From: Ignavibacteriales bacterium
GTDB lineage: Bacteria > Bacillota_I > Bacilli_A > RF39 > UBA660
Direction: 5' to 3'
DNA length: 64,000 nt
NCBI GenBank assembly: GCA_050259235.1
Contig: JBLNAG010000002.1
Location: 88,893 to 152,892, forward strand
A model generated the notes under the pieces. The model searched no databases. It saw only the letters and a list, made by a program, of their open reading frames with translations, and was not told where the DNA came from. Positions within the stretch are counted from its first letter, which is position 1, and each line of letters starts with the position of its first letter. The translations under genes were made by a program, and so were the position numbers. Shown one piece after another: positions 531 through 18,209 of the stretch.

Positions 531-2795
531 TTATTCGTCTTCACTAAAGAAGTCATCAAAGAATTGATCATCTGTAACAACAGGTTTATTCTTAGGTGTA
601 TCCGCAATAGGATTCTTTTCCAATTGTGGTTTTTCTTCTTTCTTTTCAACAACCGTTTCTACAACTTTTTCAGTTACAGGTTGAACCTTAATTTCCGGTT
701 CAATTTCCGGCTTAACTTCTTTCTTAATTTCAGGTCTCTTAACAACTTTAAATTCATCTTCAAGCTTTGGAACCACTTTTTCACTCTTCTTTTCTTCCAG
801 AGTTGGAATTGAAGGAATTGTAATAATTTTTGGCTCCTCTTTTGGTTGAACAGGAGTAACAAATCTTGTTTTAGCTTCAGATTCAACTTTTCTCTTTTCA
901 GCTTCACGACGATCTTCTTCCTCTAATTCTGCTATTTTAGCATCAATTCTCTTAACCAAATCATCCATATTCAAGCTACCCATGTCATTATTTTTATGCA
1001 TTGGAGGAATAATATTTTGTGATGATCCAGAACCAGAAGAATGATCACTTAGTGAATTAATTAATCTATTTTCTTTGTCTTTTTTCTTTTCATCAACATA
1101 TTTTTTTAAGTCAAATACTTCTACTGAACTCTTAGTTCTAATAGGATAAATGGACTTGTCATACTTTTTACCCCAAGCATTCATATTTTCCAATTTGAAA
1201 TTTGGAGTCATTTCCGTTTTATAAGGCATCATTCTTGTACGGATAACTACAATTGACCATTTTTTTAATCTTTGTAAATCACTAACTGTAACAAGTGGTG
1301 TAGAAACAGTCTTATCTTTATCTTTAGATTTTTCTTCTCCACACATCTTACTTATTTCTTCTAGGGCTGCAATTTCACTACTTATTAAGTAAATGATATT
1401 ACCACAGTTACCTTTGATGGTTTCTCCATTTTCTTTGCCATATACTTGATATAATTGAGCAAAGTTTTGAATAATGAAAGTAAATCTAATAGCTCTACTA
1501 CGAGCAGCAGTAACCATTGTTGTTACATCTTTAAGTGGTGGCATATTTGCAAACTCATCTAATATGAAATTTGTTCTAAATGGTAATTTTCCACCATTTT
1601 CTTGTGCTACATCAATTAAAGTTTCATAACATTGTTTAATGAAAATTGTTACCAATGAATGGTATGTTTTCTTTTCATCTTGTACAACAATAAAGACTGC
1701 TGTTTTATGTCTACCTATATCTTTCATATCAAAATCACTTCTTGAAAGCATTTCAGATAGATTTTCACGAGAAGAGAATAATTTAATTTTTTGTTTAAAT
1801 ACTGATAAAATACTACTCTTTGTTTCATTTGGCGCCATCAACGTACTAGCAACATTTATGTATGCTGGTGAAGTTTGACTTTTATCACTATAATATTCTT
1901 TCATATATGTGCTATTGCCATATTTTTCTTCACCAACAGTAGTCATTAAATTAATACTATTTAAGTTAATTTCATCTTCCTTAGCATCTTCAAACAAAGC
2001 TAAAGATAATCCTGCAAAATAATCTGCAGATGTCTTTTCCCAGAAAGGATCTTGTCCTTGAGCTGCTTCATCATAAAGAATATTCATTGCTAAGTCATCT
2101 AATAATTCGTTAGCTTTATCAGGGTTTCCTTCCCTATATAATTTATAAGGTAATGATAATGGATTCCATGAATTACCTTTTTGAGGTTCACGGAAATTTA
2201 ACAGTACTATGTTATATCCCTTTTCACGTAATTCATTAGCATTTCTTTCGTATATTTCACCTTTAGGGTCAGTGATAATCATTGATTCTCCCTTTTTAGC
2301 TAATATCTTAACCATTGGTTGAACCATCATTTCAGTTTTACCAGAACCAGTGGCCCCAATAACTAAACTATGATATTCACCGTCATCAACCCATATTTCT
2401 TTACCATTATTGATAAGAGGAATACCTGCAGCATCAGCCTTTTCTTGTGCTGGATATACTCTTCTAAGTTCTTTTTTCATTTCACGGTCAGTTGACCATC
2501 TTGAATATCCTTTTTCTTTTTTTGCACCAGATGCTAAACCAAAGCCTTTTTCTCTTTCGAAGAAGTATGATGATACACTCATCATAATAGCAATTAATGC
2601 AAAGAAGAAGAATACCAAAGTAGGTCCAATATATTCTGATGTGAAGGCAGGAAAAGGATTAAATCCATGCAATAGACCAAATTCTGCAAATGAAGAGATA
2701 TTAAGTATTGCTATGGCTACCATATATAATAATATTATACAGAATATTATAAATATAAGCCAATCTTTAGGTTCTGCTCTAAATTTAAATTTCAT
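531..2795 (-). CDS. type IV secretion coupling protein (VirD4/TraG/TcpA-like T4CP)
   Basis: 754 aa. Two N-terminal TM helices. Walker A GATGSGKT. NFILDEFANMPPL (the LDEFANL signature of VirD4/TraG). About 230 aa of K/E/P-rich low-complexity C-terminal tail ending in acidic FFDDFFSEDE. Confidence 0.8.
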   Translation of the reverse strand: MKFKFRAEPKDWLIFIIFCIILLYMVAIAILNISSFAEFGLLHGFNPFPAFTSEYIGPTLVFFFFALIAIMMSVSSYFFEREKGFGLASGAKKEKGYSRWSTDREMKKELRRVYPAQEKADAAGIPLINNGKEIWVDDGEYHSLVIGATGSGKTEMMVQPMVKILAKKGESMIITDPKGEIYERNANELREKGYNIVLLNFREPQKGNSWNPLSLPYKLYREGNPDKANELLDDLAMNILYDEAAQGQDPFWEKTSADYFAGLSLALFEDAKEDEINLNSINLMTTVGEEKYGNSTYMKEYYSDKSQTSPAYINVASTLMAPNETKSSILSVFKQKIKLFSSRENLSEMLSRSDFDMKDIGRHKTAVFIVVQDEKKTYHSLVTIFIKQCYETLIDVAQENGGKLPFRTNFILDEFANMPPLKDVTTMVTAARSRAIRFTFIIQNFAQLYQVYGKENGETIKGNCGNIIYLISSEIAALEEISKMCGEEKSKDKDKTVSTPLVTVSDLQRLKKWSIVVIRTRMMPYKTEMTPNFKLENMNAWGKKYDKSIYPIRTKSSVEVFDLKKYVDEKKKDKENRLINSLSDHSSGSGSSQNIIPPMHKNNDMGSLNMDDLVKRIDAKIAELEEEDRREAEKRKVESEAKTRFVTPVQPKEEPKIITIPSIPTLEEKKSEKVVPKLEDEFKVVKRPEIKKEVKPEIEPEIKVQPVTEKVVETVVEKKEEKPQLEKNPIADTPKNKPVVTDDQFFDDFFSEDE

Positions 2796-2810
2796 CTTAT
2801 TCCTCCTACA

Positions 2811-3566
2811 TCATATCTTATTACTTATTAAATGTTTTCCCCAAATTAATATGAATATTCCTAAAATAACACCAACAATAACACCTGTTAATATAATTAC
2901 AGTCATGTAATTGCCAATAAAATCTTTAATTATTATATCATATCTTTTATCATTACTATACTTAATATATATATATTCTTGTTTTGAATCTGGAGTTAAC
3001 TTCCAAGTATAAACATTATTCTTTTCATCTTCAATATCGGCATTACTTTCAATTAATTTATTATGTAGCTTAATAGTAATATTTACATCCCCCATTGCTG
3101 ATTGAGTTGGTGAACCAGATTGTAATCCATCACCATTTCCATCATCAGTTGGTTCAGCTCCATAAATGTCATTATAATAATATTCACCTACTGTTTTAAA
3201 AGTTGTAAATTTATTATTTTCAACAACATTTAAATTTTCAAATATACCATTTAAAATTGGAGAATTTGAATAATCTTTTAAATTTTTATACTTCATAGTC
3301 ATTTCAATAAATGAATTATTTTTTCCTACTCCACTATCATATACATAATTTTTATAACTTCTAATAGACTTGTATGATTTAATTCTGTTTTCGAGGAAAA
3401 CATCAATATCATCATTTCCTTGTAATATTATTTTATTTGGAATAGTAACTTTAAGTTTTTCAGTAACCACATTATTTTCATCTATCACTAAGTCATAGTC
3501 AGCACTACAACCACTTAATACTAGAACAAATATGAATAATGTTGCTAATTTAAATAACTTTTTCAT
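2811..3566 (-). CDS. lipoprotein with C-terminal TM anchor, T4SS-associated (function unknown)
   Basis: 251 aa. Signal peptide plus lipobox LSGC. C-terminal hydrophobic helix. 4-bp overlap with the upstream hydrolase gene. Confidence 0.4.
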   Translation of the reverse strand: MKKLFKLATLFIFVLVLSGCSADYDLVIDENNVVTEKLKVTIPNKIILQGNDDIDVFLENRIKSYKSIRSYKNYVYDSGVGKNNSFIEMTMKYKNLKDYSNSPILNGIFENLNVVENNKFTTFKTVGEYYYNDIYGAEPTDDGNGDGLQSGSPTQSAMGDVNITIKLHNKLIESNADIEDEKNNVYTWKLTPDSKQEYIYIKYSNDKRYDIIIKDFIGNYMTVIILTGVIVGVILGIFILIWGKHLISNKI

Positions 3567-16933: not shown

Positions 16934-17767
16934 CTATTCTCCGTTCCCTGGATTTACATTTGATGGCTCTTGTGTTTGTTGATCATTATCTTCTTGACCT
17001 TCAATCATAACTGTATTAGCATTAATAAAATCTTTTAAATATTGAGTACTAACTTGAGTTTGCCCTTCAACTGGAGATACTCCACCATGAGGTACTGGGA
17101 ATAATACAACACCAAAGTTTTGCATATATGATGCTTTTCTTAATAATATATTTATTTCTTCTTTAACACCAAATATTAAATTAGATGGTGTTCTTTCAGC
17201 TTCAGTATTTTCAAAAACATGTTTCCCAGAACTGTCTTTAACAGCTAAAACTTCAACGTTTTCAATTAATCTACCAACCATTATTTTTCCAGTTGTATCT
17301 TCTGCTTTCATATAGATATCAATCTTATTTCCAGGGAAAATCGAATTTCCATATGTAGTGTCAATAGTAACTGGGAAAGCATAAGGTATTTCCCCTTCTT
17401 TTACTTCGACGAACGCTGAATCAGGTAATTTATCCTTTTCAATTAATACATCAGTAAAAAACATACTTCCCTTCGGAATTACTGAGTTAACATTTGACCA
17501 CATTCCAATAATACTAGAAGTATATAGTAAAACATTACTTGGTACTGAGATAGCAGGTAATTCAATCACACTAACCATCTTAGAAGTAATTTCTGTTCTT
17601 GGTTGAATAGTAACATCAGCAACCGGAACTTGTACAGGCTGAACTGCTTTATCTATTTGTGATGTATACCCCCAATACAAAATACCTAAAATAATTAAAA
17701 CTCCAATAATTGTTACAGTATTTTTGTTTCTAACAAATCTTTTAATAGAAATTAACACATTATTCAT
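16934..17767 (-). CDS. CpaB/RcpC-like Flp pilus assembly protein
   Basis: 277 aa. N-terminal TM (TVTIIGVLIILGILYW) followed by a beta-rich periplasmic/extracellular domain. Position upstream of tadA. Confidence 0.45.
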   Translation of the reverse strand: MNNVLISIKRFVRNKNTVTIIGVLIILGILYWGYTSQIDKAVQPVQVPVADVTIQPRTEITSKMVSVIELPAISVPSNVLLYTSSIIGMWSNVNSVIPKGSMFFTDVLIEKDKLPDSAFVEVKEGEIPYAFPVTIDTTYGNSIFPGNKIDIYMKAEDTTGKIMVGRLIENVEVLAVKDSSGKHVFENTEAERTPSNLIFGVKEEINILLRKASYMQNFGVVLFPVPHGGVSPVEGQTQVSTQYLKDFINANTVMIEGQEDNDQQTQEPSNVNPGNGE

Positions 17768-17798
17768 TTTCTTTCATCCCTTTCATTCTTATTATCTA

Positions 17799-18209
17799 TT
17801 AATGTGGTGTTTCCAATATTGCATCTAGACGATTAACAATATCAAAATTCATTACTTCACCAACAACATTTCCTTTTTCAGCACTTGAAACTTTCAAGCT
17901 TACTTTTGGAGGTGTTTCATTTATATCATAAATCTCAATTACATAAGTACGCGCTAAACTAGCATTTTCAGCGAATCTTCTAACAAAGTTTTCTACGAAC
18001 TTTTCACGATCAATTCGAATAACTCCATCTTTTCGATAAGCTGCCAAATCAACAGCATCATACATAGCTGCTTCTGTTGTTTCATTCAATAAAACCATAT
18101 TATGTTCATCAGTATTAGTAATTGATTGGAATAGAAAAACAAATAGGATAGCAATTATTCCTATACTAATAATCAATACTGACCAAAACGATTCCTTCAC
18201 TATTACCAC
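17799..18209 (-). CDS. TadE/TadG-like pilus-associated protein with N-terminal TM; first gene of operon (non-ATG, GTG start)
   Basis: 136 aa. SFWSVLIISIGIIAILFVFLF hydrophobic helix then a soluble domain. The start codon at 18209 is GTG. A 259-bp promoter-bearing gap lies upstream. Confidence 0.4.
   Translation of the reverse strand: MVIVKESFWSVLIISIGIIAILFVFLFQSITNTDEHNMVLLNETTEAAMYDAVDLAAYRKDGVIRIDREKFVENFVRRFAENASLARTYVIEIYDINETPPKVSLKVSSAEKGNVVGEVMNFDIVNRLDAILETPH

Follow-up and report, generated by a model that had tools for sequence, protein, structure and literature searches.

The 64,000-nucleotide stretch of contig JBLNAG010000002.1 analysed here (hereafter the window), from a bacterium of the RF39 lineage, carries on its minus strand a string of genes in which a conjugation-type type IV secretion system (T4SS) follows a set of genes resembling those of Tad/Flp pilus machines (Table 1). 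Our preferred reading, to which we give a probability of about 0.55, is that positions 531-27683 form one chromosomal Gram-positive conjugation-type T4SS locus of the pAW63/pBMB67/pLS20 kind, with its own Tad-like filament module. In the open reading frame (ORF) listing of the window, the minus-strand run from 531 to 18209 is unbroken, and its genes mostly overlap or lie 3-24 bp apart. An earlier note on this DNA had described it as 19 co-oriented genes that overlap or are spaced by 0-25 bp. The run does exist, but it comprises 18 genes, also in that note's own list, and the spacing fails at five junctions: 31 bp between the DUF5411 and CpaB-like genes, 123 and 129 bp flanking the gene for a 78-residue protein, 66 bp between the 321-residue gene and p100, and 61 bp between p100 and p170. 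The shared orientation was dropped as a meaningful signal. The plus strand of the 64-kb window carries no more than a single operon, of three genes, and the guanine-cytosine (GC) skew is negative across nearly its entire length; since almost all genes of the window are on one strand, the co-orientation of this string is uninformative.

It is conserved synteny, not co-orientation, that exceeds chance. When all window proteins were compared by tblastn with 160 fetched loci, the same order, from p536 through the coupling protein (T4CP) to a rhodanese gene, was found in about 160 independent loci. Because relatives share this order from p536 onwards, the locus begins four to five genes further upstream than the 18209 limit first proposed: the conserved unit is 531-27683, which adds p1176, p1060, p226 and p536. 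Among the loci that extend far enough for the neighbour to be seen, the secretion ATPase is followed by a gene of the T4SS half in 50 of 52; VirB4 has a gene of the Tad half upstream of it in 30 of 39 loci and a T4CP gene downstream in 32 of 33. The pairwise divergences of the two halves are also closely correlated (Spearman 0.93).

Table 1. Features of the locus and its immediate neighbours, in the direction of transcription (TM, transmembrane; aa, amino acids; positions are those of the window)
Feature	Position	Strand	Evidence and remarks
tRNA-Leu(CAA)	28462..28550	-	ARAGORN and Rfam; conserved upstream neighbour, then a hairpin
p536, polytopic membrane protein with large extracytoplasmic domain	26073..27683	-	First conserved gene of the locus; position kept, 30-65% identity
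p226, signal peptide and C-terminal membrane anchor	25325..26005	-	Read from sequence; position kept in relatives
p1060, large Cys-rich secreted protein	22131..25313	-	Read from sequence; occupies the adhesin/surface-protein position of pLS20, pAW63 and pBMB67
p1176, tandem paralogue of p1060	18469..21999	-	Direct-repeat families D1-D6, 72-85% nucleotide identity
DUF5411 protein, N-terminal TM helix	17799..18209	-	Pfam DUF5411 1.2e-50
CpaB/RcpC-like (SAF-domain type) protein	16934..17767	-	Pfam RcpC 1.1e-6; TIGR03177 8.6e-9, below its cutoff
T2SSE/VirB11/CpaF-superfamily secretion ATPase, pLS20 'VirB11' subgroup	15647..16930	-	Pfam T2SSE 1.2e-27
TadB-like platform protein candidate (301 aa)	14724..15629	-	hhalign 95.7% (E 1e-8) to a Priestia 'T2SS F family' protein
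TadC-like platform protein candidate (260 aa)	13942..14724	-	hhalign 96.4% to the gene after the Priestia T2SSF gene, 95.6% to pBMB67 hyp244
Promoter with TG-extended -10, before the 78-aa gene	13852..13879	-	TTGAAA-16-TATAAT with TG
78-aa single-TM protein, candidate major filament subunit	13582..13818	-	N-terminus MKEAAGEAN near-invariant in 74 orthologues; C-terminus Cys-rich
pp140a, small protein with N-terminal TM helix, minor-pilin candidate	13030..13452	-	Paralogue of pp140b, hhalign 100%
pp140b, paralogue of pp140a	12591..13013	-	hhalign 100%
TadZ-like two-domain protein candidate (321 aa): N-terminal alpha/beta domain and ParA/MinD fold with degenerate P-loop	11607..12572	-	
Sigma-70-type promoter at the junction of the halves	11565..11593	-	TTGACA-17-TATAAT, 12/12
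p100, VirB2-like T4SS pilin candidate, two TM helices	11238..11540	-	Weak T4SS_pilin match
p170, paralogue of p100 with N-terminal extension	10664..11176	-	hhalign 99.8% between the families; weak T4SS_pilin match
VirB6/TrbL-like channel protein	8636..10639	-	Pfam TrbL_4 1.6e-9; hhalign 96% to pLS20 g49
VirB3/PrgI-like small membrane protein	8283..8615	-	Weak PrgI match
p185, conserved T4SS accessory protein directly upstream of VirB4	7760..8317	-	55-90% identity across the clade
VirB4-type ATPase	5976..7760	-	Pfam P-loop_TraG 5e-13 and AAA_10; hhalign 99.8% to pLS20 g52
Cell-wall hydrolase, M23 and NlpC/P60-type C-terminal domain	3563..5956	-	M23 8.8e-24; NlpC/P60 0.016 (weak)
Lipoprotein with C-terminal TM helix	2811..3566	-	Lipobox LSGC; weakly conserved in position
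VirD4/TraG-type coupling protein (T4CP)	531..2795	-	Pfam T4SS-DNA_transf 4.5e-56, TrwB_AAD_bind and TraG-D_C
Rhodanese-domain protein	202..483	-	Pfam 1.2e-16; downstream neighbour, always after the T4CP

The downstream half (531-11540) holds the components of a Gram-positive conjugation T4SS, with VirB4, a T4CP, a VirB6-like and a VirB3/PrgI-like protein and a cell-wall hydrolase, and by sequence comparison it matches the tra regions of Bacillus conjugative plasmids gene by gene. The earlier assignment of VirB4, VirB6, T4CP, hydrolase and a VirB2-like pair is thus borne out by Pfam and by hhalign to pLS20. VirB4 is 72-94% identical across the clade and keeps its Walker A motif in 69 of 74 orthologues; the Walker motifs of the T4CP are conserved as well, so that each of the three motors of the locus (secretion ATPase, VirB4 and T4CP) keeps its ATPase motifs. 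The VirB3/PrgI-like protein aligns by hhalign with a gene in the same position on the zrk4 plasmid (95%) and with PrgI of pBMB67 (59.5%), while p185 aligns with pBMB67 hyp227 (98.2%) and has an orthologue in relative L003 with a precomputed Pfam TraC-like match. T4SS_pilin is matched by 22 of 67 members of the p100 family (best 1.5e-5), and also by the positional counterpart of p100 in pLS20, g45 (1.3e-7). The hydrolase evolves fast; an NlpC/P60-type DCSGFV motif is visible in its sequence.

The upstream half (11607-18209) had been described as a complete Tad module. What stands of this is the superfamily of the ATPase, the CpaB-like protein, a candidate TadB/TadC-like pair through profile bridges and a TadZ-like fold; the proposed Flp-like pilin and TadE/F-like pseudopilins have no family support, nor did family searches support a TadE/G-like identity for the first protein, which is a DUF5411 member. 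DUF5411 proteins are recurrent partners of CpaF/GspF-type modules in Firmicutes: one occurs in the Priestia plasmid module, and g36 of pLS20 gives a weak match (1.4e-5). The CpaB-like protein scores above the RcpC cutoff (29.0 against 28.8 bits) and is linked by hhalign to plasmid SAF-domain proteins (99.8% and 99.7%) and to an annotated CpaB (92.8%). The ATPase scores 121 bits with NCBIfam VirB11 and 99 bits with conjugal TadA, under every NCBIfam cutoff, and among PDB sequences FlaI, CpaF and VirB11 score about equally. Its Walker A motif does not vary among the 93 orthologues compared, and no protein identical to that of the window is on record. Its Walker B motif, PKWILLSEVR (residues ~213-223), has Ser in place of the Gly of canonical CpaF, VirB11 and PilB; this variant is shared with the ATPases of pLS20, of a Paraclostridium bifermentans plasmid and of a Priestia plasmid, and is absent from those of Thermoanaerobacterium, zrk4 and pBMB67.

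The TadB-like candidate also aligns with pBMB67 hyp305 (hhalign 89%) and is predicted to have TM helices at its N-terminus, then a helical domain and a pair of TM helices at its C-terminus; its stop codon overlaps the start of the TadC-like gene. One of the two Priestia plasmid counterparts of this pair matches Pfam T2SSF (3.4e-5). The TadZ-like assignment of the 321-residue protein is supported at the level of fold and architecture only, and hhalign of its family with the TadZ-like AAA proteins of the plasmids was not significant. Elsewhere in the window, a 552-residue protein (53330-54988, minus strand) has the methylation motif of type IV pilins at its N-terminus (Pfam N_methyl 1e-7) as well as a stretch weakly resembling FGE-sulfatase. 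Such a protein implies a prepilin peptidase of the PilD/ComC type and a second filament system elsewhere in the genome.

Upstream of the Tad-like half, the large Cys-rich secreted protein ranks with the fastest-evolving products of the locus (25-50% identity); most relatives have a single copy, with the gene ending some 6 nucleotides before the DUF5411 gene. In the window, p1176 and p1060 have near-identical C-termini. Pfam matches were found for none of p536, p226 and p1060. Further upstream is the tRNA-Leu(CAA) gene, which 15 of the 20 relatives checked also have close to the locus. Between it and p536 the window has a gene for a GyrI-like small-molecule-binding protein (27758-28507, minus strand), for which a tblastn comparison with the related loci gave no homologue. 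With the GTG listed as its start, this gene would run into the tRNA; an internal Met is therefore the probable true start.

Homologues of the ATPase at 66-100% identity number in the thousands, and all source names listed for them are those of uncultured organisms ("Bacilli bacterium", "uncultured Tenericutes", "Mollicutes", Ca. Fimihabitans of Mycoplasmatota incertae sedis). Close homologues occur in at least 574 of the GTDB species genomes, among them closed chromosomes 1.20 and 1.26 Mb long; the carriers are uncultured, small-genome, mostly gut-associated bacteria represented by metagenome-assembled genomes. The flanks, tRNA-Leu/scpAB on one side and rhodanese on the other, persist down to about 66% ATPase identity. 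The Tad core has a mean identity of 71%, against 62% for ScpAB, and diverges in step with it (Pearson 0.67). The locus has the same GC content as the rest of the window (about 29%), among whose core genes are those for ScpA/ScpB, DapF, PolA, PolC, SerRS, RF1 and PrmC together with two gerA-type germination operons. These last are two divergently placed gerA/gerB/gerC-type operons (31765-35571 on the plus strand and 35584-39584 on the minus strand), which indicate that the host lineage is, or recently was, a spore former, despite the 1.2-Mb closed genomes of relatives.

Relaxase homologues were sought with the pLS20 MobL, a replication-relaxation protein and an FtsK-like protein as queries, over about 10 kb on either side of the anchor genes; none was found in the 2.65 Mb made up of the window and the 160 loci, and no Pfam relaxase was found among the window ORFs scanned. 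No integrase was found. The window holds no att repeat and no second copy of the tRNA-Leu 3' end, and a megablast of the 17.7-kb region against plasmids gave no match. The conserved flanks, the divergence that follows ScpAB and the negative searches for integrase, att repeat and relaxase in the sequence covered thus indicate a domesticated locus rather than an integrative and conjugative element (ICE) or a plasmid. Judged from these comparisons, the locus is fixed in the core chromosome and inherited mainly vertically under strong purifying selection, and the framing of the earlier note in terms of ICE and plasmid families does not apply to this copy. Some movement did take place: in one relative (L138) the scpA-scpB-tRNA block lies downstream of the rhodanese gene, as scpA-scpB does in two others (L157, L160), so that either the locus with its rhodanese gene or the scpAB block moved at least once. 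The rhodanese gene stays beside the T4CP in the relatives, including the lineages with a relocated scpAB.

Internal promoters, scored as sigma-70-type matches out of 12 consensus positions, divide the locus. The one at the junction of the halves reaches at least 11/12 in 53 of 68 relatives. That preceding the 78-residue gene reaches at least 10/12 in 50 of 71, and a strong Shine-Dalgarno sequence, AAGGTGGTGA, lies between it and the gene; an Rfam scan returned tRNA only, with no riboswitch ahead of this pilin-like gene. A minority of lineages have a locus that is interrupted exactly at these two promoters. Genes for Alg14-like, Fic, PcrA, LigA and phosphoketolase proteins follow the TadC-like gene in L058 (12831-21095), an ABC transporter and a DAP (diaminopimelate)-dehydrogenase-like gene lie ahead of p100 in the group of L161 (1-6170 of that locus), L037 (12806-18146) has an inserted RelB/RelE-like pair and LysM/peptidoglycan-binding proteins, and other lineages have 5-8 kb of cargo before the pilin-like gene. 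The splits mean that physical linkage is not obligatory and, together with the conserved internal promoters, make a single obligatory polycistron unlikely. As read from its sequence, the locus is a set of three transcription units, usually but not necessarily contiguous. The idea that the two halves go together is upheld by their common order and co-divergence, and qualified by their separate promoters and by the minority of split lineages.

The earlier note did not recognise the arrangement from known families, yet it is already that of the tra regions of pAW63/pXO2/pBMB67 and of pLS20 (PMC1196294, PMC8557374), both pAW63 and pLS20 being conjugative plasmids (PMC1196294, PMC8557374). Their hallmark, in which the neighbours of a 'VirB11' ATPase gene are a DUF5411-like gene and two genes for membrane proteins, all in one array with VirB4, VirB6 and VirD4, is found here in full. 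The two-part architecture occurs on plasmids of P. bifermentans and Priestia, on pLS20 and pBMB67 and on the Mycoplasmatota plasmid zrk4; tblastn led from the ATPase to pLS20 and the P. bifermentans plasmid, and from VirB4 to the Mycoplasmatota plasmid and Bacillus thuringiensis pBMB67. As early as 2005 the "VirB11" of pAW63 was seen to be flanked by conserved hypothetical genes (PMC1196294). Like the present locus, the tra regions of pAW63, pXO2, pBT9727 and pBMB67 comprise a large surface protein, DUF5411-like and SAF/CpaB proteins, 'VirB11', two membrane proteins of ~250-300 residues and small TM proteins, as well as VirD4, TrbL/VirB6, PrgI, an accessory protein, VirB4 and an NlpC/P60 hydrolase, and several profile links of 89-99.7% probability join pBMB67 proteins to those of the locus. 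They differ in that the plasmids have a MobP relaxase, a TadZ-like AAA gene before the ATPase and the T4SS block before the ATPase block, whereas the locus is chromosomal, with no relaxase found, and has the T4CP last.

In pLS20 of B. subtilis, genes 34-54 likewise include an adhesin, g36, the 'VirB11' g37, g38/g39, small TM proteins and g45, then VirB6, VirB3-like, g51, VirB4 and hydrolase genes, and g37 shares with the ATPase of the locus (SEVR) the Walker B signature SE[VT]R. On pLS20 and the P. bifermentans plasmid the order is small TM protein, ATPase, two membrane proteins, small proteins, VirD4, VirB6, VirB3-like, accessory protein, VirB4 and hydrolase. The pLS20 adhesin, encoded upstream of the module, is needed for efficient conjugation (PMC8092201), and a study of the pLS20 family remarks on the VirB11 homologue as exceptional and counts genes 36 and 38-47 among those of unknown function (PMC8557374). 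In contrast to the locus, pLS20 has no annotated CpaB-like or ParA-fold gene, has a relaxase in the operon and is a plasmid under quorum sensing; hhalign of the locus families with g40, g41, g45, g50, g51 and g53 was not significant. On zrk4 and pBMB67, SAF/CpaB, AAA (TadZ-like), CpaF, TadB-like and TadC/T2SSF genes and small proteins lie in the T4SS region, directly after the T4SS genes on zrk4 and ~8 kb downstream on pBMB67. The zrk4 plasmid (CP074574) is the best plasmid match of the locus VirB4 (30% identity), and its VirB4 is followed by SAF, AAA, CpaF, TadB-like, T2SSF and small pilin genes. Unlike those of the locus, these pilins have the canonical Flp motif (G/SPSLEY, G/VIFEY), and zrk4 is a plasmid with the T4SS before the Tad module.

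More distant systems share some of these features. A chromosomal, clade-wide T4SS related to the FATA class of monoderm mating-pair formation (MPF) systems is found in Patescibacteria, mostly without relaxase, and a non-conjugative role has been proposed for it (PMC12102498), namely in epibiotic growth (PMC12102498). Like the present locus it has VirB2-like pilins and reduced-genome hosts; it differs in belonging to another phylum and in that no Tad- or VirB11-like module has been reported near the clade virB4, VirB11 occurring in one MPF-T-type genome only. A filament machine and a T4SS carried on one element do cooperate in IncI1 (R64), which combines a thin type IVb pilus with a Dot/Icm-like T4SS, and in PAPI-1; the pilus aids contacts in liquid and the T4SS moves the DNA (PMC12857230). 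These are diderm systems with T4b pili and a PilV adhesin, without sequence kinship to the locus, and their two clusters are separate. A predicted system of gut Clostridia resembles the locus in combining DUF5411 with an ATPase of the CpaF type, a membrane protein of the GspF type and a large surface protein; no T4SS genes were reported with it, and it was flagged as uncharacterised (PMC9523054). On Thermoanaerobacterium pMU3262 (L166) there are two separate Tad-like clusters, each with CpaB, AAA, ATPase, membrane proteins, a small protein and DUF4320, along with FtsK/SpoIIIE and replication-relaxation genes, and no VirB4 in the 33 kb examined. A clostridial Pcp/cst-type locus was considered and rejected, the pCP13 Pcp and pCS1 cst papers mentioning no VirB11, Tad or Flp; so was a spoIIIA-like sporulation channel, VirB4 and VirD4 being present.

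Several observations weigh against a conjugation-type T4SS with its own filament module. The halves have separate conserved promoters, and housekeeping genes lie between them in some lineages. The TadB and TadC identities are transitive, the two proteins being candidates through profile bridges to plasmid proteins: neither has a direct Pfam or PDB match, and hhalign of the locus families with pLS20 g38/g39 was not significant. The AlphaFold 2 model of the TadB-like protein has a mean predicted local distance difference test score (pLDDT) of 64, with meaningless Foldseek matches, and so lends no support at the level of fold. Its profile, run with HMMER on 1.84 billion representatives, gave 289 matches, mostly fragments, and the distant full-length members had no T2SSF domain; the TadB-like, TadC-like, TadZ-like and pp140 family profiles found nothing among PDB sequences. 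The 78-residue protein has no G/XXXXEY Flp motif (no E-Y at +5/+6) and no pilin family match, the pp140 proteins match neither TadE_N nor anything in PDB (DUF4320 is weakly matched by 3 of 84 members), and the prepilin peptidase motif GxGDxK occurs in no frame of the window or of any fetched locus.

The negative results for Flp motif, prepilin peptidase and pilin families would be accounted for by the main rival, according to which there is no pilus, and the ATPase, the two membrane proteins, the CpaB-like protein and DUF5411 form an intrinsic energising and assembly sub-complex of the monoderm T4SS. Its task may be the assembly of the VirB2-like proteins or the gating of the channel; the small TM proteins would then be parts of the channel or span the wall. 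This is the more natural since the ATPase scores equally against VirB11 and CpaF, the VirB2-like proteins could be the real extracellular element, and the pAW63/pLS20 literature treats the ATPase as VirB11 (PMC1196294, PMC8557374). Against it stand the link of the TadB-like protein to a T2SSF-family protein, the bona fide Flp pilins beside the same module on zrk4, the nearest plasmid relative of the locus VirB4, and the strong conserved promoter and Shine-Dalgarno sequence of the 78-residue gene itself, which fit a major subunit. We know of no canonical VirB11 ATPase that works with a GspF-type platform or with CpaB, and we consider this rival unlikely, though the most serious of all. Chance adjacency of two independent machines, a Tad-like adhesion pilus beside an uncoupled T4SS, would agree with the separate promoters and the housekeeping genes between the halves, with the clostridial DUF5411 Tad-like modules for which no T4SS is mentioned (PMC9523054), and with the many Gram-positive T4SSs that have no such module, such as the pCP13 Pcp locus. 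Nevertheless, at least five plasmids that are unrelated to one another, from Bacillus, Priestia, Paraclostridium and Mycoplasmatota, have the same pairing, and the order, adjacency and co-divergence in the chromosomal loci are as given above, which leaves coincidence quite improbable.

A third possibility is that the locus is a machine for DNA uptake, in which a Tad-like pilus captures DNA that the T4SS then imports, as a source of nucleotides or repair templates for an auxotrophic small-genome host. It would suit the lack of a relaxase in the window and loci and the reduced genomes of the relatives, and it has precedents in the Flp-dependent transformation of Micrococcus luteus (PMC4322843), in ComB of H. 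pylori and in archaeal Ced/Ted (PMC12857230, PMC12102498). The T4CP is conserved, however, with intact Walker motifs, whereas ComB works without VirD4, a receptor for substrate secretion (PMC12857230), and no DNA-binding or ComEC-like component was found in the locus; we regard uptake as improbable. Least probable is that the locus is a conjugative element integrated at tRNA-Leu and mobile to this day. The locus does abut tRNA-Leu(CAA), its nearest homologues are plasmid tra regions, and the scpAB-tRNA block is on its other side in some lineages, but the negative searches for integrase, relaxase and tRNA 3'-end repeat in the sequence covered, the persistent flanks, the ScpAB-like divergence and the window-like GC content all speak for a resident locus.

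Our best reading thus remains a domesticated contact-dependent transfer machine of the pAW63/pLS20 type. The hybrid apparatus that the earlier note envisaged is favoured, since the halves co-evolve and recur together on plasmids. In such a machine, the ATPase, the TadB/TadC-like platform, the CpaB-like protein and the ParA-fold protein would assemble a short filament, with the 78-residue protein, presumably highly expressed, as main subunit and the two 140-residue proteins and DUF5411 as minor ones. The filament and the large Cys-rich secreted proteins would make or stabilise contact with another cell, the hydrolase would open the wall, the VirB4, VirB6, VirB3-like and VirB2-like proteins would form the channel, and the T4CP would feed a cytoplasmic substrate into it, the three sub-operons, each with its conserved promoter, working together. 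Since no DNA-nicking enzyme was found near the locus, the machine may serve another cell-to-cell function. By analogy with the chromosomal transfer of Mycoplasma, listed in a recent review (PMC12857230), the cargo might be chromosomal DNA passed between conspecifics without a cis-encoded relaxase, a suggestion that falls a little short of even odds; proteins are a somewhat weaker candidate. Together with the relaxase-less T4SS of Patescibacteria (PMC12102498), this analogy makes either cargo plausible. Going further, and tentatively, an order-level lineage (RF39/RFN20/ML615J-28-like Bacilli) may have domesticated a conjugation machine and a Tad-like filament as a permanent, relaxase-independent transfer organelle. 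This organelle might drive the exchange of chromosomal DNA or, as in the role suggested by the Patescibacteria T4SS, acquire macromolecules from neighbours or deliver them; we think this broader proposal possible but rather doubtful.

A search of the literature available to us found no paper that reads these plasmid genes as a Tad-like module or that describes this chromosomal locus. The architecture itself is already known. The clade-wide chromosomal context does look new, and the Tad-like reading of the plasmid "VirB11" module is interesting and testable. Gram-positive T4SSs were recently reviewed as being universally without VirB11 homologues (PMC12857230). A T4SS class of Firmicutes and Mycoplasmatota, including the tractable pLS20 and pAW63, nonetheless carries a secretion ATPase with CpaB-, TadB/C- and TadZ-like partners, and at least one of its members, zrk4, also has canonical Flp pilins. 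This offers a testable hypothesis as to how plasmids of the pLS20/pAW63 type form mating pairs in liquid. Should the proposal of a transfer organelle prove true, their conjugation would use an unrecognised pilus of the type-IV-filament kind, contrary to the textbook picture of Gram-positive T4SSs as devoid of VirB11 and pili. The presence of the machine in hundreds of uncultured species, some with genomes of 1.2 Mb, and its conservation above that of ScpAB suggest a core function in this abundant group, and these bacteria may be the second candidate, after Patescibacteria, for a reduced-genome lineage that has taken over a monoderm conjugation machine.

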